A stretch of 64,000 bases of DNA from Escherichia coli (GTDB taxonomy: Bacteria > Pseudomonadota > Gammaproteobacteria > Enterobacterales > Enterobacteriaceae): the NCBI RefSeq assembly GCF_044324875.1, contig NZ_CP172185.1. One strand, written 5' to 3'. Below the pieces are notes generated by a model. That model saw only the letters and a program-made list of their open reading frames with translations. It made no database searches and was not told the origin of the DNA. The translations under genes were made by a program, and so were the position numbers. Numbering within the stretch: the stretch's first letter is position 1; each line of letters begins with the position of its first letter. Positions 1 through 35,714 of this stretch are shown here, piece after piece.

Positions 1-666
1 ACCTGAGTTATCTCTGGTCTTTAAGCGCATCGTGTTATCGCGTTGATGTGTTCACCTGACGGATTTTCCAGTCCGTCAGGGCGGAACGTCCGTCTTTTAT
101 CCGGAGGTTCCGATGTTTATTCCACTTCTGTTTCGCGCAGAGATGCGCCTGACACCTTTCTTTCAGCGACTCAGACAACGTCTGTGTTATCCGGTGAGTC
201 GTGTTCATACACAACATCCCTGGTCTTCTCCACAGTTGCGGCACCTTTACTGCACGCCGTGGTTTGTTAACGCCACCGGCAATCTGGCAGTCCGTGCCTG
301 CATTGTTTCCATTGACGGTTCTTTGCGACACTGCTTTGAGTTCCGTGAAGGCTCTCACAGCCGTGAATACCGTTTCTGGTTTGAGGCGCTTCCTTTGTCG
401 GTACTGCGTTTTAACGCTTTTACCGGTCGAATATCCGATCGCCGTACACTCTCTGCTGCCTCCCGTATGGCCGCGCAGCTTACTTCCTTTCGCTATCGCT
501 TCGGTTTGCGCTGAAGCTGTTTGAGGTCGTTATGACCGTCATTTTCTCTACGAGCAGCGTTGTCTGATCGCGCCATTCAGAACGCGATGACAAAGCTGAT
601 TTTTCCTTAACCCGTCCGGGAGCGCTTCCGTTCGGGGAACGGTCTCTCTGTTTCTGGAGATTGTTT

Positions 667-1053
667 ATGGGACTCGATATTTTTTTCCTTGGGCGTGATC
701 GTGTTTGTGTTACCGACGCAGTGGTATCGGTACCGGAAACGCGGGAAGTGGGGTACTTTCGCAAGGTTAACCCACTGATTGCCTGGTTTGAGAAGCATTG
801 TGGACCGCTTGAAAATGCCGTGGAGCGTCCGGTTTCCAGAACGAAACTGGAGGCACTACTGAGCGATCTTGAATGCCTTACGCCGGAGAACTGCCGGGAA
901 TTCTTCCCCACAACAGAAGGATTCTTTTTTGGCTCTCAGGAGTATGACCAGTATTACTGGAAGGATGTTGAGGACGTGAAGTCGTGGGTCAGACGCACGC
1001 TTGATTCGTTTGATTTTGAACGAAAAATACTGTTGCTCTGGGCATGGTGGTAA
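667..1053 (+). CDS. hypothetical protein (island cargo, ~128 aa)
   Basis: ORF track 661..1053 (alternative start at 661, ATG at 667); no recognisable motif; lies upstream of ardA. Confidence 0.3.
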   Translation: MGLDIFFLGRDRVCVTDAVVSVPETREVGYFRKVNPLIAWFEKHCGPLENAVERPVSRTKLEALLSDLECLTPENCREFFPTTEGFFFGSQEYDQYYWKDVEDVKSWVRRTLDSFDFERKILLLWAWW

Positions 1054-1471
1054 CTATTTCTCAGTCCTTATTTTTAACCATGTGATTATTCGCAGAGGCC
1101 CGACAGCTCTGGCCTGCTTTTATTCCGGAGAATGAGATTATGCAAATAAGTGCAGAAACTCGCGCTGTTTTACGTCACTACAGACAGATCATTAACGCCA
1201 GACGGCGTGAAGATGGCATGAAAGCTCTCAGCACGCCGCAAATCGTTGATGAGATCTGTGAGTTTATGCTCAGCCAGCCAGCAGTGTATCTGGGGGGGCA
1301 GTTCATCATGCAGAAGGCCAGAACAAGATAGCTGTCTTTGTTCATGGCTTTTCAACAGACCGTTATGCTTTCGCCACCACATGGTAAGGCGGGTCTGATT
1401 TTACTGTTAACCGTACGGTTCACTCTCATACCGTACGGTGGGAGTGAACCCTTTTCATTAAGGACACTCTC

Positions 1472-1682
1472 ATGAAAACGAAAACTTCTGCACCTGCTGT
1501 ATATGTTGGTACCTGGGCTAAATACAACAATGGCAGCATAGAAGGATGCTGGTTTAATGATTTAACCGTTTTTGAAACTGAAAGCGATTTTTTATCTGCG
1601 GCCCGTAAGTTTCATCAGGATGAAAAAGATCCTGAATTTATGTACCAGGATTATGAAAACTTTCCTTCGGGAATGGCTTCAG
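1472..1682 (+). pseudogene. ardA: antirestriction protein ArdA, N-terminal fragment interrupted by an IS
   Basis: Translation ...PAVYVGTWAKYNNGSIEGCWFNDL...DPEFMYQDYENFPSGMAS matches the ArdA N-terminus as I remember it; reading frame runs 6 codons into the IS end and stops. Confidence 0.6.
1676..1682. repeat. candidate target-site duplication GCTTCAG (left copy)
   Basis: Identical 7-mer immediately flanks both ends of the IS21-family element (second copy 4322..4328). Confidence 0.45.
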
Positions 1683-1884
1683 TGCAAAATGGCATCTGAA
1701 TCGATCGCAGTTTGGCATTCGAATCGATCATGATTTGGCATCCATCTCCGATCACAGTTTGGCATCACAATCGATCACGATTTGGCATGCTTCCGATCAT
1801 TGATTGGCATCCTGCCAGTCACTCCGGGAATTAACTCTTTTCACCACAGTCTCCATTGCCGTGTTTAAACCAGTGGAGACGTCA

Positions 1885-3450
1885 ATGTCCAGAAAGAGAA
1901 AATCCAGGAGCACTATGGAAACCTGTTTTAAGATCCTTCAGCTCAAGTTCGACAAGAAGCTGACTAACCGTTGTATCGGACTGACGTTACACATCAGCGC
2001 CTCAACCGTTTTTGAGGTTCTTGCCCGCTTCAAAGCCTCTTCTCTGTCATGGCCATTACCTGCTGATATATCCCATGACACGCTGGAGAAACTCATTTTT
2101 CCGCCCAAAGACACCTTTGCATCAGAGCTTGTAATGCCTGACATGTTGTACTTCGATACGGAAATGAGAAAACCAGGTGTGACGCGGCAACTGTTGTGGA
2201 TGGAATACAAGGCACAGGCGGGTAACAAAGCGATGGGATACTCGCACTTCTGCCGTTGCTACCGGGAGTGGAAAAAAACGCGACGTCTCTCCATGCGCCA
2301 GGAGCATCGTGCCGGCGAAAAGCTTTTTATCGACTTCTGTGGTCCTACGGTTCCTGTTATTAATCCGGACACCGGTGAGATACGCCGCGTGGCAATCTTC
2401 GTGGCCGTAATGGGGGCGTCCAACTATACCTACGTTGAAGCGTGCGAAGGTCAGGACATGATGTCATGGTTAAATGCCCACAGCCGTTGCCTGACCTTCC
2501 TGGGCGGCGTACCGAAGCTGCTCATCCCCGATAACCTCAGAAGCGCAGTGAAAAAGGCCGATCGATATGAGCCTGTCATCAACGACAGTTATCAGGCACT
2601 GGCTGAGCACTATGGCACGGTTATCATCCCGGCCCGACCACGCAAACCTAAAGATAAACCAAAAGCAGAAAACGGCGTCCTCATCGTTGAACGATGGCTT
2701 CTTGCCCGCATCCGTAATGAAACCTTCCACACGCTCAGGGCGCTGAATGCGCGCCTTAGGGAGTTACTGACAGACATGAATAACCGGCCAATGAAGGGGT
2801 ACGGCAATCAAACCCGTGCAGAACGCTTCCGCATACTGGATGCGCCAGCACTCTCTCCGCTGCCTCTGGCACCTTATGAATACACGGAATACAAAGCTGT
2901 GAAGGTTGGCCCTGACTACCACGTTGAATATGCCCGTCACTGGTACTCCGTTCCACACGAACTGGTCGGTCAGCGTCTGTCACTGAAGGCGGGGCAGTCG
3001 GTGGTACAGCTCTGGCACAAGGGGCAGTGTGTGGCGCAACATCCGCGCAGCACACATGAATATAAACACACAACCAATCCGCTTCACATGCCAGAGCGCC
3101 ACCGGCAGCACGGGACATGGACACCGGAACGCCTGATCGAGCAGGGAAAACGTACGGGCCCGTCCACAGGCCGGGTGGTTGAATCCATGCTGAAGGCAAA
3201 ACCCCATCCGGAACTGGCTTATCGTGCAGTTCTGGGGCTGCTGGCACTTCAGAAAAAATACGGCCCGGAACGGCTGGAAAAGGCCTGTTACGTTGCCCTG
3301 CACTATAACGCCCCTGACAGACGCTTTATCGACAATCTGCTGCGTCACCATCGGGAGAACCTGGAGCTTCCATTATCCCGCCAGGGCGAACAACATCCGG
3401 CATATGCTTCAGAGCATGAAAACCTGCGTGGTCCGGGCTACTACCACTGA
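1885..3450 (+). CDS. istA: IS21-family transposase IstA
   Basis: ORF track 1804..3450; N-terminal HTH-like region then integrase-fold region; start at ATG 1885 or 1915 is uncertain. Confidence 0.8.
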   Translation: MSRKRKSRSTMETCFKILQLKFDKKLTNRCIGLTLHISASTVFEVLARFKASSLSWPLPADISHDTLEKLIFPPKDTFASELVMPDMLYFDTEMRKPGVTRQLLWMEYKAQAGNKAMGYSHFCRCYREWKKTRRLSMRQEHRAGEKLFIDFCGPTVPVINPDTGEIRRVAIFVAVMGASNYTYVEACEGQDMMSWLNAHSRCLTFLGGVPKLLIPDNLRSAVKKADRYEPVINDSYQALAEHYGTVIIPARPRKPKDKPKAENGVLIVERWLLARIRNETFHTLRALNARLRELLTDMNNRPMKGYGNQTRAERFRILDAPALSPLPLAPYEYTEYKAVKVGPDYHVEYARHWYSVPHELVGQRLSLKAGQSVVQLWHKGQCVAQHPRSTHEYKHTTNPLHMPERHRQHGTWTPERLIEQGKRTGPSTGRVVESMLKAKPHPELAYRAVLGLLALQKKYGPERLEKACYVALHYNAPDRRFIDNLLRHHRENLELPLSRQGEQHPAYASEHENLRGPGYYH

Positions 3451-3466
3451 CAGAAGGAACAACAGT

Positions 3467-4222
3467 ATGAGTGATAACCTGTTAAACAAACTGACCCAAC
3501 TGAAACTCCCGGCGATGGCCGGGAGCCTGATACGGCAGCGGGAAACGCCTCAGACCTACGACGAACTGTCGTTCGAGGAAAGGCTGACGCTGCTGGTTGA
3601 TGACGAGCTTCTGAGCAGGGAAAACAGCCGTGTGGCACGGTTGAGAAAAAATGCCGGCCTGAAATACCAGGCAACACCGGAAGGGCTGCGCTATCCGGCC
3701 TCAAGAGGTCTGCGGGCTGAACAGATGAGAGAACTGCTGAACGGCCACTACATAACCCACAGGAAAAACCTGCTGATAACCGGTCCGACAGGATGTGGCA
3801 AGAGCTGGATAGCCAATGCGCTGGGCGAACAGGCATGTCGACAGAAACACAGCGTCCGGTACTGTAGAACCGGGCGATTACTGGAACAACTGGCTCAGGG
3901 ACGTGTTGATGGCAGCTGGCTGAAATATCTGAAACAGTTGCAAAAAATACAGGTTCTAATCCTGGACGATCTGGGGCTGGAACAGTTAAGTAACGCCCAG
4001 TGTAATGACCTTCTGGAGCTCATAGAGGATCGTTACGGACAAAGCAGCACGATAGTGGTAAGCCAGTTCCCGGTAGATAAATGGCATGGTCTGATGGAGA
4101 ACCCAACAACAGCAGATGCCATCCTGGACAGACTGGTACATAACTCACACCGAGTGGTCCTTCAGGGAGAGTCACTGAGGAAAAATCCCCCGGTAGTGGA
4201 AAGCAGCGAAAAAACGCGTTAA
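3467..4222 (+). CDS. istB: IS21-family helper ATPase IstB
   Basis: Walker A GPTGCGKS and Walker B LILDD motifs; ATG 3467 lies 17 nt after the istA stop; ORF track 3224..4222 is an N-terminally over-extended version. Confidence 0.85.
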   Translation: MSDNLLNKLTQLKLPAMAGSLIRQRETPQTYDELSFEERLTLLVDDELLSRENSRVARLRKNAGLKYQATPEGLRYPASRGLRAEQMRELLNGHYITHRKNLLITGPTGCGKSWIANALGEQACRQKHSVRYCRTGRLLEQLAQGRVDGSWLKYLKQLQKIQVLILDDLGLEQLSNAQCNDLLELIEDRYGQSSTIVVSQFPVDKWHGLMENPTTADAILDRLVHNSHRVVLQGESLRKNPPVVESSEKTR

Positions 4223-4300
4223 AAAGCGGTAGAAAAAGTTAAGTTCCCGGTTGATCGAATGGATGCGAATCGCTGATCGGACTTCGATGCCAATCCGTGA

Positions 4301-4627
4301 TCGAATAGAGCGGAATACGCAGCTTCAGAATATGGTTTCAACTGGGCTTATGTTGAAGGTTATCGTCTTGCCCGTGAAGAAGGCTGTGAAGATGCATGGT
4401 ATGCATGGGTTTCTAATACCGGTGATACCTGTTTCGAACAGTTCAGGGAGGCGTGGCTTGGTGGTCCTTATGACAGTGAACTCGAGTTCGCCGCGCAGTA
4501 CGTGGATGAATGCGGTTTTCTGTCAGAGGTACCTGATACTGTTGCACGCTATTTTGATTATGAGGCTTTTGCGCGCGATTTGTTCATGGAACTGGATTTT
4601 GTCGACGGACACGTTTTCCATCGGTAA
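4301..4627 (+). pseudogene. ardA: ArdA C-terminal fragment (no start codon)
   Basis: Frame without ATG translates ...EYGFNWAYVEGYRLAREEGCEDAWYAWVSNTGD...VARYFDYEAFARDLFMELDFVDGHVFHR*, matching the ArdA C-terminal region as I remember it; joins the 1472..1682 fragment across the IS. Confidence 0.55.
4322..4328. repeat. candidate target-site duplication GCTTCAG (right copy)
   Basis: Same 7-mer as 1676..1682. Confidence 0.45.
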
Positions 4628-4730
4628 CTCACAGCCATGAGGGCGCATATAAGCCGTGTACTGGCGGATGTGATTTCAGCATACATTCTGCTGGTTTTTT
4701 TACCGTTGTTGACAATTTTAATCATCGCGG

Positions 4731-5183
4731 ATGAACAACCTGAACTCTGTTGTTCACCGCCCGGAGGCATCGTTCCTTCGGACGGTGTGCTCTTTCATCA
4801 GAAAGAATCAGACAGGGGGTTTTATGTATTCGCGTTTTATTACTGGTTACTGGCATCTTCAGACGCAGTCCGCTTTGCTGGCACATCTCTGTCAGCTTGA
4901 AGGTGAACTGACGATACTTCGCGCCTGGCAACGTCTCGGAATTACCCCGGTGCCGGAGGATGAAGATGAGCCTTCACCACTTTACTCAATTTTGTGGGAT
5001 GTTGGTGAGGCTCTGGGCTGGTTGCTGTATGACCTGGAGATGGAAAATGTTCCTGCACCGGGAACGATTTTCCACGAGGTATTCGACAGGGTTATATCTC
5101 TGGGGTATGAGACTGAGCCCGGTATCTGGGCTGAAAGTATCAGTACCGGAAAGCGCTACGCTGCAATGCCTGACGAATTTTAA
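4731..5183 (+). CDS. hypothetical protein
   Basis: ORF track; start ambiguous (an internal Met MYSRF... is possible); followed by a hairpin. Confidence 0.3.
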   Translation: MNNLNSVVHRPEASFLRTVCSFIRKNQTGGFMYSRFITGYWHLQTQSALLAHLCQLEGELTILRAWQRLGITPVPEDEDEPSPLYSILWDVGEALGWLLYDLEMENVPAPGTIFHEVFDRVISLGYETEPGIWAESISTGKRYAAMPDEF

Positions 5184-5196
5184 TGTTTTCCACATT

Positions 5197-5220
5197 CCCA
5201 CAGGGACTCATCCCTGTGGG
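5197..5220 (+). other. GC-rich palindrome CCCACAGGGA-N4-TCCCTGTGGG, followed by GGGACGGGTCCC and a T-run
   Basis: Perfect 10-bp inverted repeat read from sequence; possible terminator or RNA element between small ORFs. Confidence 0.5.
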
Positions 5221-5250
5221 ACGGGTCCCGGCTTTTTCAGGAGAAATTTC

Positions 5251-5589
5251 ATGAGACCCGATTTGAATACTTTACCCGGAGATTCCGGCTGCAGCGTCTG
5301 GTTCTATGACGGAATGTCTCAACCGCGTCTGCTGGCGGGCAGTATTGCCGGGTTACTGACGGATGTTACGATCACATCGAATTACCGTGGTGACGTCACA
5401 TCTGAAATTCATGACGTGGTGCAGGAGTGGCTTGCGACCGGCAGGGGTAACCTGGCGGATTTAAAGGAAGAACTCTGGTACTACAACCTCTACATAAATC
5501 CGTCGGCAGACGAACTTATGAATGCCAACAGGCGGTATGGCCTCGGACATACCACCAGGCTGAAAGGCTTTATCAATAACGCGGCGTGA
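5251..5589 (+). CDS. hypothetical protein (~112 aa)
   Basis: ATG 5251 preceded by AGGAG; internal start of ORF track 4960..5589. Confidence 0.35.
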   Translation: MRPDLNTLPGDSGCSVWFYDGMSQPRLLAGSIAGLLTDVTITSNYRGDVTSEIHDVVQEWLATGRGNLADLKEELWYYNLYINPSADELMNANRRYGLGHTTRLKGFINNAA

Positions 5590-5600
5590 CACACCGCCAT

Positions 5601-5626
5601 CCCGTGAGGGCTCAGCTCCTCACGGG
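5601..5626 (+). other. palindrome CCCGTGAGG-N8-CCTCACGGG
   Basis: 9-bp inverted repeat upstream of the RBS of the 5665 ORF; the same motif recurs at 6148..6173. Confidence 0.5.
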
Positions 5627-5664
5627 GCTGTTCCCTCGGTGATTTTCATACAGAGAGGAGCAGA

Positions 5665-6102
5665 ATGATGAACGTTAAGTCTGTGACTGAGGTTGACGAC
5701 GCTGTGGTTGCCCGTGTCAGTGAAGTTCTGGAATTCGCATTTCCGGGGCAGAAATTTGAAGTGCTGAAGGTATGCGATTCCGGCGTTTACAACATGATTA
5801 ATGTGTACTGGCTGGACGGCCCGACACAGGCTGAAGTGCGGTTTATCACCCGTGCGTTTGAAGGCAAAAACGGGCTGAGGTTTGTGCACGAATCCCGCGA
5901 ATTCAGTAATGAATTTGTGCAGGAGTGCATTGACCGGCTTCGCCAGAAGTACGGGCATCGCAACGTTCCGCCAGAGGTGACCGTGGAGCGTTACTGGAAA
6001 AACGATCTGTGGAAGATTAAAACAGATCGTTTCCCGGGCACTATTGAGGTTGCCATCAACGAAATGGGGATGGAAACCAGTAAATACCGGAAGGTTGTAT
6101 AA
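5665..6102 (+). CDS. hypothetical protein (145 aa)
   Basis: ORF track; GAGGAG RBS upstream. Confidence 0.4.
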   Translation: MMNVKSVTEVDDAVVARVSEVLEFAFPGQKFEVLKVCDSGVYNMINVYWLDGPTQAEVRFITRAFEGKNGLRFVHESREFSNEFVQECIDRLRQKYGHRNVPPEVTVERYWKNDLWKIKTDRFPGTIEVAINEMGMETSKYRKVV

Positions 6103-6123
6103 CCGGCTGGACTTTTGACGATG

Positions 6124-6147
6124 GCGGAATGTGACAATTCCGCTTTT
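6124..6147 (+). terminator. candidate intrinsic terminator (GCGGAAT-N6-ATTCCGC + TTTTCC)
   Basis: Stem-loop followed by T-run 20 nt after the stop of the 5665..6102 ORF. Confidence 0.4.
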
Positions 6148-6182
6148 CCCGTGAGGGCATTGTTCCTCACGGGACAATGCCC
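6148..6182 (+). other. two overlapping alternative palindromes (CCCGTGAGG/CCTCACGGG and GGGCATTGT/ACAATGCCC)
   Basis: Read from sequence; the two stems are partly mutually exclusive; sits just upstream of the RBS of the 6210 ORF. Confidence 0.45.
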
Positions 6183-6209
6183 TCTTCATTTACCAGAGGA
6201 GCATTGATT

Positions 6210-7187
6210 ATGGCTGAATGGTGCAGAAATCGTTTTGAAATCACCGGTAAGTCAGTCTGTCTTGACGTACTGATTCAGTGGATTGAAGGGAATGATGCCC
6301 CCCGGTACCGTCATGCGATCCAGCAGAGCATACTGCTGTTTCTTGCAGGCTGTGCGGGGATACTGAAACCGGTAAGAACGGTGTCATATCCGCCTTATCC
6401 CGGGCTGGTCAGTCACGGTGCCGGCTCAACAACTGTAGCCAGTCAGGCGTTTGAACAATGGCTGGGATTACTGACCAGGGATGCCTTCCTTGATCACGAG
6501 ACGGTGAAGACAATAGATCGTCTTTATCATCAGACAGGGACAGGCGCTATCCGGTGGAGTAATCTGCCTGATACGGCGAAGGAGATAATCGGTGGTGTGC
6601 TTGCACAACAATATGCTGACTGGTTTGGCGTGGCGGATGTGTATGAACGCCCTGATAACGCCTTTCTCTGGGAGTCGTTGTTAACATTTGCGGAGTATTC
6701 GCAACCCTGTGATATGCTGCAGGTGATGCCAACACGACTGGCCACGGAGCTGAACGGAAGTGGTGGTTTGCTGAAAGGCACCGGAACGACCCGCAGTTTT
6801 TACTGCCGCCAGTTTGGTATGGAGTACCCACTGGGGCAGAATGTCCGGTGGAAACGAACCGGGCTGAGTACGTTGATACTGGAGTTTGATACCATCTGGT
6901 GTCCGCCTTCAGGTGTACTGGTGGGGGAGATTTCGGCAGTGTTTGACTGTGAGGTCCGTCACTGGTACAGCGAGCCGAAGAACGGAATCAGAGGCTATGA
7001 CTGTTATGATGGTGGTGAACATACGGACAGCAATATGGAAGCCGAATGGCCACACTCTGACGATGAGGGGGAGGTCGCGGAGCATGAGCAGCCACAACTC
7101 TGTCTGATCAGGGACACGCAGCCAGGTGAACGCGTCATGGCATTAGCATCAGTCGAGTCCCCGGGGCCAGTAGTAAAAATAGTGTAA
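6210..7187 (+). CDS. hypothetical protein (~325 aa)
   Basis: ORF track 6177..7187; ATG 6210 (MAEWCRNRF...) preceded by GAGGAG; acidic C-terminal tail. Confidence 0.45.
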   Translation: MAEWCRNRFEITGKSVCLDVLIQWIEGNDAPRYRHAIQQSILLFLAGCAGILKPVRTVSYPPYPGLVSHGAGSTTVASQAFEQWLGLLTRDAFLDHETVKTIDRLYHQTGTGAIRWSNLPDTAKEIIGGVLAQQYADWFGVADVYERPDNAFLWESLLTFAEYSQPCDMLQVMPTRLATELNGSGGLLKGTGTTRSFYCRQFGMEYPLGQNVRWKRTGLSTLILEFDTIWCPPSGVLVGEISAVFDCEVRHWYSEPKNGIRGYDCYDGGEHTDSNMEAEWPHSDDEGEVAEHEQPQLCLIRDTQPGERVMALASVESPGPVVKIV

Positions 7188-7196
7188 TGAAACAAT

Positions 7197-7221
7197 GCGC
7201 CACATTTTGTGGCGCTTTTTT
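7197..7221 (+). terminator. intrinsic terminator (GCGCCAC-TTTT-GTGGCGC + TTTTTT)
   Basis: Perfect 7-bp stem followed by T6, 10 nt after the stop of the 6210..7187 ORF. Confidence 0.6.
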
Positions 7222-7268
7222 AATAAATCAGTGATGGCAGAGTTGTTATTGTAAATAACTCTCCGTGT

Positions 7269-10184: not shown

Positions 10185-10186
10185 GA

Positions 10187-12432: not shown

Positions 12433-12465
12433 TAAATAGCCTCGAGTTTCGTTTTACAGGTTTTT

Positions 12466-12494: not shown

Positions 12495-12505
12495 TAAGTC
12501 TGACG

Positions 12506-25797: not shown

Positions 25798-26259
25798 TCA
25801 CGGGAGTAGCGTCTGCCTGTTGCCGTTGTATTCCAGAATCACACTGTCCGGTGTGATTTGTTCCACCATGAACAGTGTACCGGGTAATGCCTGTCCGGCC
25901 CTGACATCAGTTTCAGTTCCTCCGGGGAGTATGACGCGTGCTGAAAGCTGTGGCTGAATACCAAAGATTTCTTTCAGACGGGGGGATGAAAATGCCTGTG
26001 AACCGGAGGAGGTGCCAGCCGCATTTTCCGGCTGATGTCCCGTGACAGAACCGGAAACCGGGGAGATACCCTGTTCCAGTGTCCGCAATTCATGACGAAT
26101 TTTTTCTCTTGCCAGCATCGCTTCATACAGGGCGGTTTCTTCCTGAATCTGCTCAATCTGCAGTTGTTTGTTCTGTGACGCGTCATTTTCGTTGCCGGCC
26201 ACTGCCATTGCCGGTAACAGCAGGGCTGCAATCAGCAGCGCTTTTGTTTTATCGTGCAT
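25798..26259 (-). CDS. pilP: PilP
   Basis: ATG 26259 (MHDKTKALLIAALLLPAMAVAG, signal peptide); position in operon. Confidence 0.6.
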   Translation of the reverse strand: MHDKTKALLIAALLLPAMAVAGNENDASQNKQLQIEQIQEETALYEAMLAREKIRHELRTLEQGISPVSGSVTGHQPENAAGTSSGSQAFSSPRLKEIFGIQPQLSARVILPGGTETDVRAGQALPGTLFMVEQITPDSVILEYNGNRQTLLP

Positions 26260-27535: not shown

Positions 27536-27558
27536 TGACCCGTTCAAGGGAACCTCCG

Positions 27559-29184
27559 TCAGATTACGTGCGGTGTGATCAGCACAACCAGAATGGTGTC
27601 ATCGTCACCGCTGTCAGTGCCGCCACCCAGCCCGAAGAATGCCGGGCTGCCGACGCCCTGGCGCACGGATTTGCTGCCGGACTGCCGGAATCCGCTGAGA
27701 ATGACGGTCTGACCTGATTTCAGGTCGATGGTCTGGTTGATGGTTTTCAGGTCCACCGTGGGTACCTGTGCCCGGCTGCCGCCGCTCTCGAACACCTCAA
27801 AGGTGGGTTTGTCGGAGAGGTTCATGCTGAAGAGCAGCTGCAGGCTGCGCGCATCCGGCTGAATGAACGGCAGCAGGGTCATGTTGAAGCCGGTGGTGAT
27901 GGTGGCGGCGTTCAGGGAGGTGCTGGTCCCGACGTTGGCCGTGGTGTCGGTGGTGACACCTTCGATATAGCCCTGCTGGCTGGCCACCTGCATGGGCACC
28001 GGCGTCATGTTTTTGGTGACGGCGGAGTTCTGTGTGACCACGCTGACGGTGCCCTGACTGGAGAGCGCCTTCAGGAAGGCCTTCGAGCCGGTGAGCTTAC
28101 CGTCCACAATGGAGACGCCACTGGTGATGATGTCATCGGCGGCACTGCTGAATGCCCCTCCCAGCGTGAGGCCGAGACGTCCGTCGCTGAAGACGGCATT
28201 CCAGTCAATGCCGGCCTGGTCACGGCGGGTTTTTCTGACGCTGAGGACTTCCACGTTCAGCACCACCTGACGTCGCATCTCGCGGTTACGTGCCTCCACA
28301 AAACGGCTGACGGTGTCGAGGACCCGAGGGGTGTCGGTGACGGTGAGAAAGCCGGTGGCAAGCACCATCCGGCCGGTCCCGGGGGTCAGCATGGCACCGA
28401 CGGCATTTTTCAGGTCCTCATAGAGGGTGGACTTCATGTCGACCGTGGTGGTCTGGGTGTTGCTGGCCTCCCCGCTGAGGGTGCCGGCGTTACTGCCGGT
28501 ACTGCTGCCGGATGAGGAGGAGGCGGTGCCACTGACGACTCTGGCATTGTAGGCGACCTGGCTGTCCATGTAGGTGACCGGGAAGGTGCGTGTCTCCAGC
28601 CAGTAAAAGGTGATGGCGCGCCGGTCACTGTCGTAACGGTACGAGATACCGAGCCGGGAGGCGACGGTATCCAGCAGCTGCCGCAGCCCGGTGGCGCTGA
28701 GTTCCGGCAGGACGGCACCGCCGCCCGGGGGGATGACCTGTGCGCCACTGCCGACGGCGGCCAGCGGCACCATGCCGTTCGGGTCAGGTGCGGGGATTGC
28801 GCCTGTCAGCTGCTGTGTGGGGCCGGTGGTGGCCAGCGCCTGCCAGACGTCGGCGGTGATGGTCACGGGGATACCGCAGCTTCCGGTGATGCGCTGGGCT
28901 ATCTGCCGCAGGCTGATATCCCGGCGGGTGTTGATGATGATGGGGCAGCCCGGCAGGCTCTGGTGTGCGGGGCTGACGCTGACAGGAGAGGGGTTGATCC
29001 ACTGTCGCGTGGTCTCCGTGACCACCGGCCGGGATTTACGGAGTTCGCCCGCGTGCCGGCGCGCTTTCTCCAGTGTGGCGGTGGCGTCTTTTTCCGTGTT
29101 GCTGATACGTTCGGCCGTACCGCAGCCTGACAGCAGCAGGGCGACGGCAGTCAGTGGCAGGAGCATGTGTTGTCTTTTTTTCAT
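27559..29184 (-). CDS. pilN: PilN, secretin-family outer-membrane lipoprotein
   Basis: ATG 29184 (MKKRQHMLLPLTAVALLLSGC lipobox); Ser/Thr/Gly-rich beta-domain; GC-rich. Confidence 0.8.
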   Translation of the reverse strand: MKKRQHMLLPLTAVALLLSGCGTAERISNTEKDATATLEKARRHAGELRKSRPVVTETTRQWINPSPVSVSPAHQSLPGCPIIINTRRDISLRQIAQRITGSCGIPVTITADVWQALATTGPTQQLTGAIPAPDPNGMVPLAAVGSGAQVIPPGGGAVLPELSATGLRQLLDTVASRLGISYRYDSDRRAITFYWLETRTFPVTYMDSQVAYNARVVSGTASSSSGSSTGSNAGTLSGEASNTQTTTVDMKSTLYEDLKNAVGAMLTPGTGRMVLATGFLTVTDTPRVLDTVSRFVEARNREMRRQVVLNVEVLSVRKTRRDQAGIDWNAVFSDGRLGLTLGGAFSSAADDIITSGVSIVDGKLTGSKAFLKALSSQGTVSVVTQNSAVTKNMTPVPMQVASQQGYIEGVTTDTTANVGTSTSLNAATITTGFNMTLLPFIQPDARSLQLLFSMNLSDKPTFEVFESGGSRAQVPTVDLKTINQTIDLKSGQTVILSGFRQSGSKSVRQGVGSPAFFGLGGGTDSGDDDTILVVLITPHVI

Positions 29185-29373
29185 GCAGAAATCCTTGTGT
29201 GAAACGTGAAAACAGTGAGCAGAGCAGGGAGGGCAGAAGCGCTTCGGGACTGAAGTCTGCGCGTGATGGCGATATATCCGCGGGACATGACCGCGGCCGG
29301 ATATGCAGACTTCAGTCCACAGGCTCCTCACACTGTGCGGGACAGCGAAGGTTAACGGTGCAGTGATGTCCCG

Positions 29374-29811
29374 CTAGTTGAAATAAACAAATGCGCTGTC
29401 AGGAATGACGGACGGCACGCTGATACCGGTGTCCTGACCTGTGGTGTTCAGCAGTCGCCGCCCCTTCACCCGGCCTGCCAGCGCGGTTTTGTGGGTGATG
29501 TCTGCCAGCGCACCTGCAAGCCCAGGGCGGTCATCCTGCCAGACAAAGACCCGCTGTCCGGCGATGATATGGCGGGTACCGTATACCGGGCGGAAACCCG
29601 TGGCGGTGACGGGGAGCGTGCCACCCCCCGTGCGCTCAGCCGGATGGGTGTACAGCCGGTCGTTAATGCCGTTCATGAGGCGGACCATCTCCCACGCACG
29701 TTCACGCATCTCCGCCTGCTCGCTGTACACGGTGACCCGGTGGGTACTGCTGTTGTGAAACCAGGTCAGCGCCACGGTCAGGGCCATGACCAGGGAGAGC
29801 GACCAGCCCAT
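29374..29811 (-). CDS. pilM: PilM
   Basis: ATG 29811 (MGWSLSLVMAL) directly after the pilL stop; position in operon. Confidence 0.55.
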   Translation of the reverse strand: MGWSLSLVMALTVALTWFHNSSTHRVTVYSEQAEMRERAWEMVRLMNGINDRLYTHPAERTGGGTLPVTATGFRPVYGTRHIIAGQRVFVWQDDRPGLAGALADITHKTALAGRVKGRRLLNTTGQDTGISVPSVIPDSAFVYFN

Positions 29812-29813
29812 GG

Positions 29814-30539
29814 TCAGTCTCCCGGTCTGTCGCTGACGTGCACCACACACTGCGTGCTGTTGATGGCTGCATACAGCGGCGTCTGTGCGTCCTGATAGAG
29901 ACGGAAGAGTTCACTGAGCGCGTGGCGGAACTCGCCGGTGAAATGCAGCGGCGCATCGATGCTGTAATTGAGTCTGGGGTTCTGCCAGGCCAGCTGCCAG
30001 GTGCCACCGGCCTGACAGGGAACGGCGGCCACCCACTGCTCAAGACCGGCACGCAGCAGGGTTCCGCGGGCAAGAGTCCAGGTGGTCCGTGCATGCGCCG
30101 GTTGCGGCATGTTTGCTGATTTTTCCGCGGTTTTTTCCTGCAGACTGGTGGTGCCCGGGGTGGCCTGAGACGGACTGAACAGGGTGTTCCGCTCAATACG
30201 TACATGCTTCTTCTCCGTGTCGGTGATGGCGCGGAGCTGATATTTTTTCAGCATGCGTTCCGTAACGTAATTCCACTGGTCATTTCCCTTCCATGACACC
30301 GTGCGGGGCGGCCTGACATCCGGTGCAATGTCAAATGTCCATCCCGGCGGTATCAGTTGCTGCATGGCTTTTTTCAGTGATAACCCTTTACCGTCCCGGG
30401 GAATAAATTTCAGTGCTCCCGGAGCGCTGCTGACCGTGGACGATGAGGGTGCACTGACCTGAGAAGGTGACGGTGCAGCAAAAAGTGGAACAGAAAATGC
30501 CAGCAGCGGCACAATAAGAAGTGGTTTCAGTGGTGTCAT
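29814..30539 (-). CDS. pilL: PilL, lipoprotein, first gene of the pil operon
   Basis: Signal peptide MTPLKPLLIVPLLAFSVPLFA; position at the head of the pil cluster. Confidence 0.6.
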   Translation of the reverse strand: MTPLKPLLIVPLLAFSVPLFAAPSPSQVSAPSSSTVSSAPGALKFIPRDGKGLSLKKAMQQLIPPGWTFDIAPDVRPPRTVSWKGNDQWNYVTERMLKKYQLRAITDTEKKHVRIERNTLFSPSQATPGTTSLQEKTAEKSANMPQPAHARTTWTLARGTLLRAGLEQWVAAVPCQAGGTWQLAWQNPRLNYSIDAPLHFTGEFRHALSELFRLYQDAQTPLYAAINSTQCVVHVSDRPGD

Positions 30540-30591
30540 ATTATGGTCCTGTATCGCACATTTTTTGTGTTTCCTGAGCCTGTATCCGGTT

Positions 30592-30810
30592 TTATTCCGG
30601 CTGAACTCTGCTGCATGAGAATGCGGTGACGTTCACTTTCACACTGAACGATTTACCGGCCTCTTTTTCTTTTAAAAACAGCCTGACGCATTCAGGCTCA
30701 GTCATCGGTGTGTTCTGAAAACGCACCCAGGATACCGGTGCACCACCAGGCTTCAGGATGGTGGCTTCAATCCGGTATTTATGCGGTGTGGTGTCTGTTG
30801 TTGCTGTCAT
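30592..30810 (-). CDS. small hypothetical protein (72 aa) upstream of pilL
   Basis: ORF track only. Confidence 0.3.
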   Translation of the reverse strand: MTATTDTTPHKYRIEATILKPGGAPVSWVRFQNTPMTEPECVRLFLKEKEAGKSFSVKVNVTAFSCSRVQPE

Positions 30811-31336
30811 TCATGGCTCCTGTTGCCGGTTTCCGGTCCCGGAAAAACAGGCGACATCAGCAACAAGGGGAAAAACGCGATGTCGCCTGAAAGGTACTGG
30901 TGCAGCGGTGCGTTGTACGGACGCAGGTCCGCACAACCGGAAATACACGGGATGATTCGGTCAGTGTATTTTCGTGTTGTGCGCCTGTACTGATACGGCA
31001 GGGTGTGATGAGTGTTACCTGTGGCTGCAGGCGCGGCACGTCACTCATAACGTAGCATTCTGTTTCCTCCTCAGCCCGGCTTCAGGGCGTTGCCGCAATA
31101 CCCGATTGTTAAAGAGCCTTACCGGCATGGTGTCCGGTGTCACCGCGCGGATAACGATACGGCGGTGTCTGAAGGGATGATGCTGCGGCGCTCTGCACAT
31201 GGCGACGATTAATTCTTTTTGTGTTTCTGAAAATTTATTGCCGGGAAATTTCTGGTGTGACAGGGTGAATTAATTCTGGTCAGCGACGCTCCTGAGAAGG
31301 CAGAGTGCGCTGACATTTCGTGAACGGAGGAATGCC

Positions 31337-32845
31337 ATGTCCCTGAATCCCACCGATGAACAGTCAGCCATCATTCACTGGCAGGGGGAAAAACTGGTGG
31401 TGAATGCCTTTGCCGGTACAGGCAAAACCAGCACACTGGTGCAGTTCGCCGCAGCCTGCCCTGAGAGCCGGATGCTGTATCTGGCCTATAACCGCGCGAT
31501 TCGTGATGAGGCGGAGCGCCGGTTTCCCTTTAATGTGGAGTGCAAAACCTCCCATCAGCTGGCGTATTCGCGGTTCGGAAAGCATTTCCGGCATCGTCTG
31601 GTGCCGGGGCTGTCAGTGACGGATGTAGCGAGAAAACTGAACACCCGCTACTGGACGCTTGCCCGTGTTGCCATGACCGCGCTGAATCAGTTCATCTGTT
31701 CGGCGGACGTGGCGCCCGGAATGCAGCATATGCCGCCTCCCGACGAGATGAAGGGCATGTCGCCACAGGATGCGCTGCGTGCCGTGCAGATCCTCTGGCA
31801 TGAAATGAGCAATCCGGATGGCAATTTTCCGGTCACTCACGACACCTATCTGAAGCTCTATCAGCTTTCCTCACCGGATCTGTCACGCAGGTGGGATACG
31901 ATCCTTTTTGATGAGGCCCAGGATGCGAATCCGGTGACGTCCGCACTGGTGCTGGGGCAGCGGTGCAGGGTGGTACTGGTTGGCGACCGTTACCAGCAGA
32001 TTTATCGTTTTCGTGGTGCCAGCAATGCACTGTCGCATCCGGCACTGAACGGGGCGGACCGTCTCTGGCTGACGCAAAGTTTTCGTTTTGGTCCTGCCGT
32101 GGCCGGGGTGGCCAGCCAGTTACTGAAGCGTGCCGGCGAGAGCCGTGAGGTGACCGGCAGGGGCGGGGATGATGAAGTGCTGACGGCAGGTGAAATGCGT
32201 GCGCGCGTGAAGGCAGGGAAGATGACCGGTCACAGGGCGATACTGAGCCGGACGGTGGCCGGTGTGATTGGCACCGCACTGATGGCGGCAATGCGTGGCA
32301 GGAAGGTTTACTGGGTGGGGGGCATTGAAGGCTACAGAACGGAGGCACTGGAAGATCTTTACTGGTTTCAGATGGATATGCCGGAGCGGATGCACAGTGA
32401 CAGACTGCGGAAGGACTACCGGGGTTTTGACGAGTACCGTCATATTGCGAAGGTGACGAAGGATGTGGAAATGAATCAGTCCATTCGTCTGCTGGAGCTG
32501 TGCTTTCCGCTGCCGAAGAAACTCGAACTTCTCAGAAAGCACACCGTCACGAATGAACAGGAGGCGGATATCACGGTCTCAACGGCACACCGCAGTAAGG
32601 GACTGGAGTGGTCACTGGTGGTACTCGATGATGATTTTCAGGATATCACCGACCCGCTGATAAGCGAGCAGGAGCGGCGGGATGAAACCAATCTGCTCTA
32701 TGTGGCGGTCACCCGGGCGCGCAGAACGCTGGTTCTCAATGAACTCATGCAGCAGCTGACGGAAGCTGCCGGCGATGGTGGTGCACCCGGAAACGCGCCG
32801 GTGCAGGGGAAGGAAGACGATGGTGTGGAGGGAGAGGATGTTTAA
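31337..32845 (+). CDS. UvrD/PcrA-like superfamily 1 helicase (502 aa)
   Basis: Walker A AFAGTGKTS, Walker B/DEAQD, motif VI-like VAVTRARR; RBS GGAGG upstream. Confidence 0.75.
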   Translation: MSLNPTDEQSAIIHWQGEKLVVNAFAGTGKTSTLVQFAAACPESRMLYLAYNRAIRDEAERRFPFNVECKTSHQLAYSRFGKHFRHRLVPGLSVTDVARKLNTRYWTLARVAMTALNQFICSADVAPGMQHMPPPDEMKGMSPQDALRAVQILWHEMSNPDGNFPVTHDTYLKLYQLSSPDLSRRWDTILFDEAQDANPVTSALVLGQRCRVVLVGDRYQQIYRFRGASNALSHPALNGADRLWLTQSFRFGPAVAGVASQLLKRAGESREVTGRGGDDEVLTAGEMRARVKAGKMTGHRAILSRTVAGVIGTALMAAMRGRKVYWVGGIEGYRTEALEDLYWFQMDMPERMHSDRLRKDYRGFDEYRHIAKVTKDVEMNQSIRLLELCFPLPKKLELLRKHTVTNEQEADITVSTAHRSKGLEWSLVVLDDDFQDITDPLISEQERRDETNLLYVAVTRARRTLVLNELMQQLTEAAGDGGAPGNAPVQGKEDDGVEGEDV

Positions 32846-34367
32846 GCGGTTCAGACGTATGCTGCCCGGCACAAAGGGCACGGAGCCTGGCGTGGTCGCG
32901 CCGGTGATACCGGCAGGGTTTTATGCGCCGCTCACGGCAGAGGCACTGTTATCACCAGAGCACAGGGAGCTGAGGCTCAGGCAGGTCTGGGATAACAATC
33001 CGATGCCCCGTGATGTATACGACAGGATGTGCCTTGAACCACTCAGCCGGCTGCTGCTGAACACCCAGAACGTCCCGGCAACACGGGAAGGACGGTGGTC
33101 CCGTGCCGGTGGATTTGGTGATCTGACGGTACTGTACACCACGTATGCCGTTCGTCTGGCAAGAGGGTACATGTTTCCACCGGATGCGACCCCGGAAGAC
33201 CAGGCGGCTCAGGCCGCAGTCTGGCATGCGGTGATTTTCTGGTCAGCGCTGTTTTACCACCTGCCCCTGCTGGCGCACCTTGAGGGGGAACTGCTGAGTG
33301 GGCGGGGCTGGCAGCCAGGAATTTCTGTGCCTGACGAACCTTTCCGTTTCCGGTTCAGGAAGACGGCGCCGCAGGGTACGGAAGCGCAACAACTTGCGGC
33401 CCTGACTGCCGGCACGCTGTTACCGGACGGCGCAACGGCCTGGCTTGTGACGGCGCCGGGCGCACTGCAGAATCTGGCCGGGGCGCTCTGGCATCAGCAT
33501 CCCGGGATGGCGCTGATTCGTGATGTGCTGCAGGAAGCGGCAAGGCAGACAGAGAGTCCGCTGAATACCTGCGCTGTCACTGCGCCGGTTACTGCGGAGG
33601 CTTCAGCAGACATCCGTCCTGCTGACCCGGTGGTGACCGGCAGCACGGACAGTGTGGTGGCAGTCACTGAGGTGCAGCCGGCAGAGGAGGTGAAGACTGA
33701 GAGCGTGCAGACAGAGACTGAAGGTGGTGGTGAGTCCGCCGGGGCGTCAGAGGTGCCGTCCGCACAGCAGGAACTGACGGTTCAGACAGCGCCAGTGGTG
33801 ACGGCAGATGATGAAGCGGTCAGTGCTGCTCCTGCGGATCAGGACACAGCAATGCTGCTGAGTCTTTTTTCAGCAGATGAGTCCGAAACTGCTGAACCTG
33901 AAAACAGTATTAAATCGTCAGCCGATCGGGACGGCCAAAGTGACGTACCGGCAGTACAGGGAGAACAAACCAGCGTTATTTATCCGGAGGGCGAAGCAGA
34001 TACGGAAGAGGTGGATTTTATTACTTGGCTGAAATCGGGGTTGTCATCGGGGATGATTGAAATAAATACACCTTCCGCGAGAGTGCATTGTATTGCGGGG
34101 TATGTTTTTTTGTGTGTCCCGGATATTTTTTATCTGTATCAGAAAATGACGGGAAGCCGTCGTGACCGCAGGAGTGTTCAGGCGTTGTTTGAACGTTCCC
34201 GTATTCACAAAATCCGGGAAGGTGAGCGTTTTTTCAGCCTGCATCTGTATAGTGTACCTGACAGAACAGGGAGTTATAAAGCTGTAAGCGGATATCTGGT
34301 TAAAAGCCGTTATCTGTGTGGTTATAACGCAGTGCCCGGGGACAGTGAATACATTGCTTTTCCATAA
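32838..34367 (+). CDS. hypothetical protein with central acidic low-complexity region (~510 aa)
   Basis: ATG 32838 overlaps the helicase stop (ATGTTTAA); acidic Glu/Asp/Thr/Ala-rich linker roughly 33580..33990; structured C-terminal domain. Confidence 0.5.
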   Translation: MFKRFRRMLPGTKGTEPGVVAPVIPAGFYAPLTAEALLSPEHRELRLRQVWDNNPMPRDVYDRMCLEPLSRLLLNTQNVPATREGRWSRAGGFGDLTVLYTTYAVRLARGYMFPPDATPEDQAAQAAVWHAVIFWSALFYHLPLLAHLEGELLSGRGWQPGISVPDEPFRFRFRKTAPQGTEAQQLAALTAGTLLPDGATAWLVTAPGALQNLAGALWHQHPGMALIRDVLQEAARQTESPLNTCAVTAPVTAEASADIRPADPVVTGSTDSVVAVTEVQPAEEVKTESVQTETEGGGESAGASEVPSAQQELTVQTAPVVTADDEAVSAAPADQDTAMLLSLFSADESETAEPENSIKSSADRDGQSDVPAVQGEQTSVIYPEGEADTEEVDFITWLKSGLSSGMIEINTPSARVHCIAGYVFLCVPDIFYLYQKMTGSRRDRRSVQALFERSRIHKIREGERFFSLHLYSVPDRTGSYKAVSGYLVKSRYLCGYNAVPGDSEYIAFP

Positions 34368-34397
34368 CAGCACCGGGTCATTCATCCGTTCAGGGAG

Positions 34398-35510
34398 ATG
34401 TATTCCCCTATGAAGAAAGATGTCGAAAAAATAACGTGGGAGGAATTACTCTTTGAGTACTTCCTTGAGAAAAATCTTAAACCTGATACTGAACACAGCT
34501 ACCGCAAAGTTGTCCGTCTGTTTGATAAGTTCCTGGGCGGTGATTCCTGGCCCGGCGATGTCACACCGAGAGACATTCAGCGATGGCGACGTCATATGCT
34601 TAAAGATCAGGGGCGTTCAGTAAACACCTGGAATAACAGAGTGTCACATCTCCGACCGCTCCTGGCGCTTGGGATCAAGAAAAAGTGGTTACCACAGACG
34701 GAAAATCCGCTTGATGGCACTTCAGTGCCCGGGGCATCAAAACAGAAAAAAACGCTCACTGATAAAGAGATGGTCAGGATTTACCGTACAGTTCAGGCTT
34801 TTGCTGAAGCTGAGGCCAATAAGATGGTGATCTGTGACAGGCGGCGCAATGCGATGTACCCTGCATGGTACTGGCTGATCGTGCTGGATACGCTGCGCTT
34901 CACGGGGATGCGTTTTAACCAGCTGAAACATATCAGGCTGAAGGATATTCATGAGGATGAGGCGGTGATTACCCTTCAGCTGGAAGGGAGTAAAACCCGA
35001 CGTGAATGGCGTGTGCCGATTGTGGAATCGTTACGACTTTCACTGAAACATCTTATTGAGTGCGCCCGTGTCAATGGTGCGTCGGATAATGACTATCTCT
35101 TTGATGTCTGCCTGTACAGCGAGCATTACAGTCCCGGGAAATACCAGTACTGTGCCAAAAGAGCGCATCAGTCGGTCAAATCTTTTTTCCGCAGACTGAG
35201 CCGTGAATGTGGTTTTTTTGTCTCGTCACACAGATTCAGACACACACTGGCAACAAAGCTGATGGCGGCACCGGAGCGTAATCTGCACATGGTCAAATCC
35301 ATTCTGGGGCACAGGAGTGTTGCCACCACCATGGAGTATATTGATTTTTCGGTGGAAGTTGCTGCTGAGGCACTGGAGGCTGAACTCGGTTTATCCACGG
35401 ATGAGGCGACAAAAAGACGGATTAAAGAGGCGAAAAAACGCCGTGAGGCCAGTACCGGGAAAAAGGAAAAACAGGAAAGTTCTGGAGGGGAACTTTCTGA
35501 CAAGGAATAA
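34398..35510 (+). CDS. int: tyrosine recombinase / integrase
   Basis: R...HxxR...Y catalytic pattern (HRFRHTLAT, LGHRSVATTMEYI); ~200 bp from the tRNA 3' end; start at 34398 or 34410. Confidence 0.85.
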   Translation: MYSPMKKDVEKITWEELLFEYFLEKNLKPDTEHSYRKVVRLFDKFLGGDSWPGDVTPRDIQRWRRHMLKDQGRSVNTWNNRVSHLRPLLALGIKKKWLPQTENPLDGTSVPGASKQKKTLTDKEMVRIYRTVQAFAEAEANKMVICDRRRNAMYPAWYWLIVLDTLRFTGMRFNQLKHIRLKDIHEDEAVITLQLEGSKTRREWRVPIVESLRLSLKHLIECARVNGASDNDYLFDVCLYSEHYSPGKYQYCAKRAHQSVKSFFRRLSRECGFFVSSHRFRHTLATKLMAAPERNLHMVKSILGHRSVATTMEYIDFSVEVAAEALEAELGLSTDEATKRRIKEAKKRREASTGKKEKQESSGGELSDKE

Positions 35511-35714
35511 ACATGCTTGACATCGGACCAGAATGGTGTAAGCATTTTTGCGTATGCGAGAGCGTGACACCTGTTACCAGCAGGTGCCACGCTTGAGGAT
35601 ACGATACTGAAACCACAGTGTAACCAGACTTACACGGAGATTTCGTTATGACCGGATCCTGTATTAGACGCCCGTTAAGGATCTCATCCCTTAACCAGCG
35701 TACTTTGATGCGTT

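Follow-up and report, generated by a model that had tools for sequence, protein, structure and literature searches.

The integrative and conjugative element (ICE) ICEEc2, described in the avian Escherichia coli strain BEN374 and assigned to the pKLC102/PAGI-2 family, occupies a phenylalanine transfer RNA (tRNA) gene, beside which it carries a trio of genes for a helicase, the relaxase TraI and a Xer-like integrase; it reportedly transfers by conjugation, for which three mobility genes and a type IV pilus are said to be needed. Both pheV and pheU have been reported as insertion sites for ICEEc2-type elements (PMC11537424, PMC13127887), and the ICEEc2 work (Roche et al., 2010) is cited in PMC11537424, PMC4458695, PMC6761156 and PMC13127887. 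Here, we describe a 64,000-nucleotide stretch of E. coli DNA (NCBI RefSeq assembly GCF_044324875.1, contig NZ_CP172185.1), the whole of which is referred to as the window. Comparative analyses lead us to read its first 35,714 nucleotides, with a probability of roughly 0.85, as the right-hand 35.7 kb of an ICE of the ICEEc2 / SPI-7 / PAPI-1 (pKLC102-PAGI-2) family inserted in the 3' end of pheV. With ICEEc2 it shares the tRNA-Phe site, the helicase/TraI/integrase trio beside the tRNA, a type IV pilus of the sort needed for transfer there, and poultry-associated hosts; conversely, ICEEc2 was described at pheU, whereas the copy studied here lies at pheV.

Two other groups of elements resemble this locus. 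SPI-7 of Salmonella Typhi, ICESb1/2, CTnscr94 and YAPI have the same tRNA-Phe target and a pilL-pilV cluster with rci, and 'SPI-7-type' DnaB as well as STY4528 and STY4534 family proteins are encoded in the left arm of a near relative, the element of E. coli GF43. To our knowledge, the cargo found here differs from that of the SPI-7 group, with neither a Vi capsule nor a SopE phage; the distal pilus genes are also different, being nearly identical to those of E. coli IncI-complex plasmids. In common with PAPI-1, pKLC102 and PFGI-1 of Pseudomonas are a relaxase of the PFGI-1 class (TIGR03760) and, in the left arm of the relatives, GC-rich genes of the TIGR037xx series, whereas we know of no shufflon/rci or IncI-type traE-traF in those three elements. 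Furthermore, the IntKX integrase subgroup is typical of PAPI-1, ICESb2 and ICEEc2 (PMC8138268), and the integrase studied here, with Xer-like matches below equivalog cut-offs, may be of that type. A type IVb pilus is used for transfer by PAPI-1-type elements, and PAPI-1, pKLC102 and PFGI-1 integrate in tRNA-Lys (PMC6761156).

Integration site, mobility genes and left arm

A single tRNA gene, tRNA-Phe(GAA), was found in the window by ARAGORN. We identify it as pheV because the DNA on its right (35600-60000) has at least 80% of its length matched in 5382 of the 5426 complete E. coli genomes compared, and carries yqgA, speC, nupG and mltC, the first two as direct flanks. Left of the tRNA, most of the length is found in just a few dozen of these genomes: at least 80% of 24200-35714 is present in 36 of them, and at least 80% of 1-25000 in six. 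Many of the carrier strains are of poultry (chicken, turkey) origin. The features at this end of the island are the following:

35715-35790, minus strand: pheV, tRNA-Phe(GAA), forming attR (ARAGORN; 3' end facing the island)
35715-35764: 50-nt attachment (att) repeat within the 3' part of pheV, the attR sequence being read directly
34398-35510, plus strand: Xer-like tyrosine integrase, 204 bp from tRNA-Phe
32838-34367, plus strand: MOBH relaxase TraI (Pfam TraI_2 and TraI_2_C)
31337-32845, plus strand: UvrD-like helicase (Pfam UvrD-helicase/UvrD_C)
33898-35666, plus strand: exchangeable integration cassette, comprising the traI 3' end and the integrase, 49% GC

TraI scored 193.1 bits against NCBIfam TIGR03760, 'ICE relaxase, PFGI-1 class' (cut-off 161.4), which places it in that family, and the integrase gene stands next to the tRNA 3' end, as in elements of this kind. 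The integrase gave its best matches to XerA/XerC/XerD-type models (NCBIfam) and to Phage_integrase and SAM-like domains (Pfam), all below equivalog cut-offs, and no arm-type domain was found in it by the Pfam and NCBIfam searches. Eleven intact genes from pilL to pilV (20096-30539), colinear with annotated relatives, constitute a type IVb pilus cluster. The mobility trio and these eleven genes are all intact open reading frames (ORFs) according to Pfam, NCBIfam and comparison with relatives, and rci and IncI-type traE and traF are present as well.

The nearest relatives are six complete, mostly poultry, E. coli genomes, whose elements share 99.3-99.9% identity with the region. The GF43 chromosome (NZ_CP172127.1) is 99.0-99.9% identical to positions 1-38479 of the window, with two exceptions: the window has 2.64 kb inserted at 1683-4321, and the shufflon is rearranged. 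Directly upstream of where position 1 maps, GF43 encodes TraG, a conjugative ATPase, the 'integrating conjugative element' genes TIGR03745-03759, an MPF_G-type set, and TraD; its left arm also includes Ssb, topoisomerase III and replication proteins of the STY4528 and STY4534 families, as well as the maintenance genes for ParB, a 'SPI-7-type island' DnaB and ParA. A ParA-DnaB left end lies beside attL in all six nearest genomes, at these distances:

GF43: position 1 to attL 45.1 kb, element 78.2 kb
E19035: position 1 to attL 45.1 kb, element about 78 kb
Br_112: position 1 to attL 46.4 kb, element 81.2 kb
CP033635: position 1 to attL 47.0 kb
CM2: position 1 to attL 51.7 kb
TUM1886: position 1 to attL 51.8 kb, element 84.8 kb

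The element spans 78-85 kb in the four relatives measured, and from this comparison a left arm of ~45-52 kb and a whole element of roughly 80-87 kb are predicted here. A preliminary description of this DNA, made from the sequence alone, had held that the island is larger than 35.7 kb, which is not directly observable in the window and is strongly supported by the 45-52 kb that separate position 1 from attL in the six genomes. It had also placed any conjugation and replication genes outside. That is correct for the secretion, coupling-protein and partition/replication modules, which would be located as in GF43, and incorrect for the MOBH relaxase TraI, the helicase, the integrase, the pilL-pilV cluster and two orphan IncI tra genes, which are all inside. 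Its further claim, that attL is absent from positions 1 to 35000, stood up to a wider search: the 50-nt tRNA 3' segment, its 3'-end 20-mer and a 22-nt invariant core, with up to 3 mismatches allowed in each, had 35715-35764 as their sole match in the window; the 50-mer in its native pheV form had none; and no further long direct repeat within the window brackets any part of the island.

The window contains attR; in GF43, attL lies 78.2 kb from attR, and attL is present in GPEC102 too. In GF43, attL is TGGTGCCCGGACTCGGAATCGAACCAAGGACACGGGGATTTTCAATCCCC, a 50-nt copy of the tRNA-Phe 3' end between ParA and the P4-type integrase of a second, resident island (positions 18284-18333 of the GF43 stretch examined; 2928-2977 of the GPEC102 stretch examined). 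The T-stem of the attR tRNA is GGTGG/CCGCC (GG..CC replacing CT..AG), and that of the attL copies in GF43 and GPEC102 is CTTGG/CCGAG, which we take to be the native E. coli pheV sequence. As these differences form two compensating pairs of changes, the helix is preserved. With four T-stem positions differing between attL and attR in relatives, an exact copy of the attR segment is a weak probe for attL, and the search was run with both sequence variants (attR type and native pheV type). All four occupied pheV genes examined, those of GF43, S19-651, GPEC102 and the window, have the element-type T-stem at attR; at attL, GF43 and GPEC102 both retain the native 3' half.

On the simplest reading of these sequences, the pheV gene at attR would be a hybrid tRNA, whose 3' half was brought by the element and whose T-stem derives from a former host. 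The circular element would hold a 50-bp tRNA-Phe 3' half acquired from that host; the crossover would take place inside the 22-nt identical stretch or 5' of it; and integration would swap in the new tRNA 3' end, the displaced native 3' half ending up as attL at the far end. The 'tRNA-Ser' annotated by PGAP at attL in many relatives was rejected, since ARAGORN detects no tRNA at that point, which holds the native 3' half of pheV.

The integrase end of the element is exchangeable. The GPEC102 element is 99.8% identical up to 33897, continues with a different traI end and an integrase that is 46.5% identical, and resumes at 35667, which is 48 bp before the tRNA; MS15052 and SF-088 have the same alternative cassette, as judged by match limits. 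The idea that elements with the alternative integrase aim at another tRNA was rejected, since the GPEC102 element, too, occupies pheV and shows the same hybrid tRNA; both cassettes use this gene and leave the same product.

As for transfer, the element is probably self-transmissible. By analogy with the family, recombination between pheV and a 50-bp tRNA-like site of the circular form would be carried out by the Xer-like integrase; once the element is excised, its DNA would be processed by TraI and the helicase and exported through a type IV secretion system whose genes would lie left of the window, while the thin pilus encoded by pilL-pilV would hold mating pairs and the rci shufflon would vary the tip adhesin PilV.

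Some observations concern the surroundings of the att sites. Directly beyond attL, both GF43 (1-18300 of the stretch examined) and GPEC102 (1-2900 of the stretch examined) carry a second island with a P4-type integrase, which in GF43 contains an autotransporter, a TonB-dependent receptor and IS66/IS1 debris; in these two strains the element appears to sit in tandem with a resident pheV island. Beyond that second island, the far flank in GF43 is ugpB, presumably not the neighbour of pheV in K-12, which suggests a chromosomal rearrangement. At the other end, the final 120 bp of the element by the tRNA (35593-35712) are 83-86% identical to chromosomal sequence in element-free genomes such as E24377A.

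Composition, breakpoints and the pilus region

The guanine-plus-cytosine (GC) content of 1-kb pieces ranged from 0.343 to 0.652 within 1-35000 (standard deviation 0.072), compared with 0.392 to 0.550 in the chromosomal part of the window (standard deviation 0.037). Recursive binary GC segmentation ended after the block of restriction-modification (R-M) genes of type III, because a GC 'bump' escapes single splits, and was replaced by an optimal-partition algorithm with a stringent penalty, which yielded these segments:

1-7200: GC 0.511
7201-12200: GC 0.358
12201-27600: GC 0.503
27601-33850: GC 0.600
33851-46500: GC 0.509

Split log-likelihood ratios at the edges of the R-M block were 142 and 89, and the maximum for a homogeneous Bernoulli sequence of the same length was 7.2 (20 simulations). 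GC content at third codon positions (GC3) was 0.32 for res, 0.31 for mod, 0.81 for pilN (0.795 on a longer ORF) and 0.755 for pilM, and 0.40-0.64 for 15 chromosomal ORFs in the window. The segment and GC3 values together indicate that three compositional classes are real; at least three had been claimed in the preliminary description, and uniform composition was not seen. The R-M genes are AT-rich as it had stated (0.358 GC over 7201-12200, GC3 0.31-0.32 for the two genes). The GC-rich block, which it had confined to pilL-pilN, is indeed GC-rich but extends over 27601-33850, from pilN into traI, and comprises pilN, pilM, pilL, the DUF1187 gene, the helicase gene and about two thirds of traI. 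The edges of this segment are also homology breakpoints, at ~27550 with respect to the S19-651 element and at 33897 with respect to the GPEC102 element, the GC boundary at 33850 marking the cassette junction. These breakpoints against sister elements and plasmids bear out the assembly from different sources that had been deduced from composition, and are stronger evidence for it. Composition alone missed the largest foreign block (15641-25481), because its GC content is ordinary and E. coli-like. The pilus region and its neighbours are arranged as follows:

15641-25481, minus strand: block derived from IncI-complex plasmids, from traF to the 3' four fifths of pilQ
15641-16843, minus strand: traF
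16945-17766, minus strand: traE-like gene
17979-19103, minus strand: rci, shufflon recombinase
19164-20448: shufflon, with four 19-bp sfx-like sites
up to 25481, minus strand: pilV, pilU, pilT, pilS, pilR and the 3' four fifths of pilQ
25482-27550, minus strand: element-type pilus part, with the pilQ 5' end, pilP (25798-26259) and pilO (26249-27544)
27551-30539, minus strand: very GC-rich pilN (27559-29193), pilM (29374-29850) and pilL (29814-30539), GC 0.58-0.64
30601-30819, minus strand: small DUF1187 gene (GF43 annotation), located between the divergent pilL and helicase genes
30848-31051: short inverted repeats between pilL and the helicase gene

Exactly 15641-25481 is matched by thousands of IncI-complex plasmids. 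When compared with the IncK2/Z plasmid pTB-nb2 (NZ_CP033633.1) in 500-bp windows, identity was 99.2-99.4% in traE (16900-17899) and 96.8-99.8% from pilT to pilQ (22400-25399), with a sharp drop at 25481 inside pilQ, so that adjoining blocks show 99.8% vs ~60-73% identity to the same plasmid. The gene order traF-traE-rci-shufflon-pilV...pilQ is that of the R64-type and pTB-nb2 thin-pilus regions, with 93-98% identity overall and up to 99.8% in sub-blocks. On the plasmid, however, traF runs on into traH, traI, traJ and icmT (of the MPF_I secretion system) and the pilus genes are of plasmid type from pilP to pilL, whereas in the element the block joins element-type pilQ-pilO in frame, and traE and traF stand as orphans against cargo debris. 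This orphan state, as opposed to the longer tra run of the plasmid, argues for transfer from plasmid to element. Furthermore, the sub-blocks have different best partners, PilU being 97% identical to that of S19-651 and 78% to that of the plasmid, and TraE 99.6% identical to that of the plasmid and 81% to that of S19-651, which points to repeated homologous exchange, some of it recent.

The 19-bp sites, of the GTGCCAATCCGGTNTGTGG type, occur in both orientations at 19166, 19674, 19701 and 20429, beside rci and the pilV 3' end; rci next to segments bounded by such sfx repeats is the arrangement of an IncI (R64)-type shufflon. The segments differ in orientation in GF43, TUM1886, E19035, STEC2018-553 and FDAARGOS_1300, and the shufflon is therefore active now or was so recently.

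On the other side of the splice, PilP and PilO are 98% identical in amino acid sequence to those of S19-651 and 60-61% to those of the plasmid. At ~27550, nucleotide identity to S19-651 declines from 97% to 78% and then to ~50%, as GC rises from 0.54 to 0.63-0.68. Beyond this point identity to the S19-651 proteins is 71% for PilN, 43% for PilM and 46% for PilL; the corresponding S19-651 genes have a GC content of 53, 44 and 48%, and the plasmid alleles are equally distant. PilN constitutes its own 90% cluster (292 sequences), and no PilN relative between 99% and 68% identity was found among 5.8 billion proteins; a scan of 100,044 species genomes yielded only one distant metagenome-assembled genome (67% identity, 43% GC), which is uninformative on the donor. 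No secretion gene of the GF43 element has a GC3 above 0.72, compared with 0.81 for pilN. The helicase and most of traI (31337-33897), with GC of 0.57-0.58 and GC3 of 0.57-0.66, resemble instead the GF43 secretion genes (GC 0.58-0.60, GC3 0.66-0.67). By composition, then, the helicase-traI part is native to the element backbone and not exotic.

These comparisons support the view that the island is a patchwork of modules with separate histories, a make-up that is normal for elements of the ICEEc2 / SPI-7 / PAPI-1 kind. Six modules may be distinguished: a GC-rich conjugation backbone, with helicase-traI inside the window and the secretion genes outside; a pilN-pilM-pilL allele that would come from a donor, with GC even higher than that of the backbone; a block of ~50% GC, from traF to the truncated pilQ, presumably captured from IncI-complex plasmids and still exchanging with them; an AT-rich type III R-M cargo in a decaying cargo slot; the exchangeable integrase cassette; and a strain-specific IS21-family insertion in ardA.

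The cargo region and its repeat tract

The left part of the island, up to the plasmid-derived block, contains the following features:

1-1682, plus strand: accessory region, with two hypothetical genes (113-514 and 667-1053) and the 5' part of ardA from 1473
1683-4321, plus strand: IS21-family insertion sequence (IS), with istA (1804-3450) and istB (ending at 4222), splitting ardA
4322-7200, plus strand: rest of ardA, two hypothetical genes, an LPD29-domain gene (5665-6102) and a DUF1281 gene (~6210-7187), GC 51%
7269-12223, minus strand: type III R-M genes res (7269-10184) and mod (10187-12223), GC 36%, annotated in relatives
12281-12428, minus strand: tract of 29 CAACG units (mod strand), 58-205 nt upstream of the mod start codon
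12430-15640: decayed cargo slot, with IS3 fragments, a 337-codon hypothetical gene (12710-13723), frameshifted relE/higA and a sigA-type tail

Positions 1-1682 are 99.0-99.6% identical to GF43, TUM1886 and E19035, where ArdA is annotated as intact, and the block 1-7200 is 85-88% identical to that of S19-651, a more distant sister element, the value for 4322-7200 being 85%. The IS has rve, Mu-transpos_C_2 and IstB_IS21 domains (Pfam), a 7-bp target duplication (GCTTCAG) and multiple terminal repeats at 1690-1811; its left junction in ardA is spanned by 0/5426 complete E. coli genomes.

The R-M genes are a rare cargo: at least 80% of 7000-12700 is held by 24 of the 5426 genomes. Res is ~90% identical in amino acid sequence to EcoPI-type enzymes from Klebsiella, Citrobacter, Salmonella, Serratia and Enterobacter, where they are encoded on 40-43 kb plasmids; res-mod is an independently mobile cargo. 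Separately, mod aligns to the FDAARGOS_1300 allele in its flanks, at 91-93% identity, but not in its centre (10578-11517), as might be expected if the target-recognition domain had been exchanged and methylation specificity had changed with it.

The CAACG tract is contained in a 70-codon upstream ORF (12220-12432, minus strand, ATG at 12432), which has its own Shine-Dalgarno-like GAGG and whose stop codon overlaps the mod ATG (ATGA). Elements that are ~99.8% identical have 29, 30, 25 and 47 units, the sister lineage has ~34, and ~7 are found where IS1 intervenes; such variation resembles that expected at a hypermutable contingency locus. When modelled according to unit number modulo 3, the upstream ORF has its stop overlapping the mod ATG, has its stop 42 nt upstream, or reads through 50 nt into mod out of frame. 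An in-frame fusion of this ORF with mod was also considered and rejected, as it arises at no modelled repeat number.

The gene pair resembles EcoPI/EcoP15I-type systems and those of Shiga toxin-producing E. coli (STEC) in the res-mod organization, in the ~90% identity of Res to 'EcoPI subunit R', and in a variable-length repeat tied to mod. In the phase-variable type III mod gene of STEC, however, the repeat is a CAGCGAC heptanucleotide located within the reading frame (Atack et al., 2018; PMC5909438), whereas the CAACG tract lies upstream, in a short ORF. In a classical phasevarion the mod frame itself is disrupted, and here no unit number does so; the tract is therefore a candidate at most for a sequence that works like a phasevarion. 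A tentative and rather doubtful proposal is that it represents a contingency switch of a new type, in which slippage through the three upstream-ORF outcomes would tune mod translation, and with it restriction and methylation. If true, a phase-variable defence or epigenetic system would be travelling with an E. coli conjugative element.

In the decayed slot, the last ~380 bp of a sigA-type autotransporter gene are found at 15094-15475 (annotation from GF43 and TUM1886), and S19-651 and FDAARGOS_1300 have there an intact sigA or another autotransporter. In the sister element of EC17CM2 (NZ_CP190349.1), which is without R-M genes, an MCR-1 phosphoethanolamine transferase is annotated within the matched stretch; this element type can thus carry colistin resistance.

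Between yggM and hemW, in chromosomal DNA of the window, lies a three-gene TRAP-transporter operon of ~3 kb with a low GC content of 39-47% (47645-50480, within 47.6-50.7 kb). It is missing at the matching position in GF43, and is a small variable islet.

Alternative readings and biological meaning

The region could be a degenerate, immobile remnant, i.e., a fixed genomic island that has lost the left arm with its secretion system and ends near the window start. In favour of decay, the left arm lies out of view, pseudogenes and IS remains fill the cargo slot, an IS interrupts ardA, and rci, res or mod is frameshifted in some relatives. Conversely, all mobility and pilus genes in the window are intact ORFs of expected length, attR is perfect, a full left arm reaching to ParA-DnaB next to attL is present in 6/6 closest relatives, and position 1 lies midway along a block colinear with relatives. 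Given intact mobility genes here and complete elements in every close relative, we consider a remnant unlikely. Nevertheless, several points weigh against an ICE as the identity of this region: its left arm is known from relatives alone, and the element here could be truncated or rearranged; the closest chromosomal match is 99.3% identical, and the IS in ardA is in no genome of the collection; excision, transfer and the role of the pilus rest on published ICEEc2 and PAPI-1 work; the likeness to ICEEc2 is one of description, not of sequence; and no donor of the pilN-pilL allele was found among the 100,044 species genomes and 5.8 billion proteins.

Other explanations address the mosaic itself. 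Type III R-M genes are, as far as is known, AT-rich wherever they occur, and pilS and pilT have 43% GC alike in the element, S19-651 and the plasmid; gene-specific constraints (AT-rich R-M and pilin genes, GC-rich secretin genes) might thus produce compositional blocks within one co-evolved element. Yet pilN has 0.53 GC in the sister element and 0.64 here, and pilM 0.44 and 0.63; moreover, the GC boundaries are sharp identity breakpoints, the R-M genes are missing from most sister elements, and adjacent blocks differ as much as 99.8% vs ~60-73% in their identity to one plasmid, all of which leaves this explanation very improbable. Even less credible is that 1-35714 comprises two or more independent elements in tandem, for instance a piece of an IncI plasmid that brought its own recombinase and lies beside a small pheV island. 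Two tyrosine recombinases, rci and int, are indeed present in the window, and tandem arrangements are real at this locus, with the P4-type-integrase island beyond attL in GF43 and GPEC102. However, rci is a shufflon invertase, placed beside its own inverted sfx-type sites and with segments inverted between strains; no att-like direct repeat subdivides the region; and the boundary of the plasmid block lies within pilQ and preserves the reading frame into element-type pilQ-pilO, an in-frame splice that speaks for homologous recombination and not for site-specific insertion.

We therefore favour an ICE of modular make-up in pheV. Elements of this kind are already known, as are their target, modular mosaicism and pilus, and the ardA::IS21 insertion and the particular combination of modules are new; the current understanding of such elements is unchanged. 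For annotation, what was a 'mosaic island' becomes the right arm of a probably transmissible ~80-87 kb pheV element, with its module boundaries mapped. Hfr-like (high-frequency-recombination-like) mobilisation of chromosomal DNA and hybrid E. coli clones have been attributed to ICEEc2-type elements at pheV/pheU (PMC13127887), and recognising one is therefore epidemiologically relevant. Finally, the stretches with 96.8-99.8% identity common to IncK/IncI plasmids indicate that a chromosomal element and co-resident plasmids exchange pilus and adhesin genes, which could change the range of mating partners.

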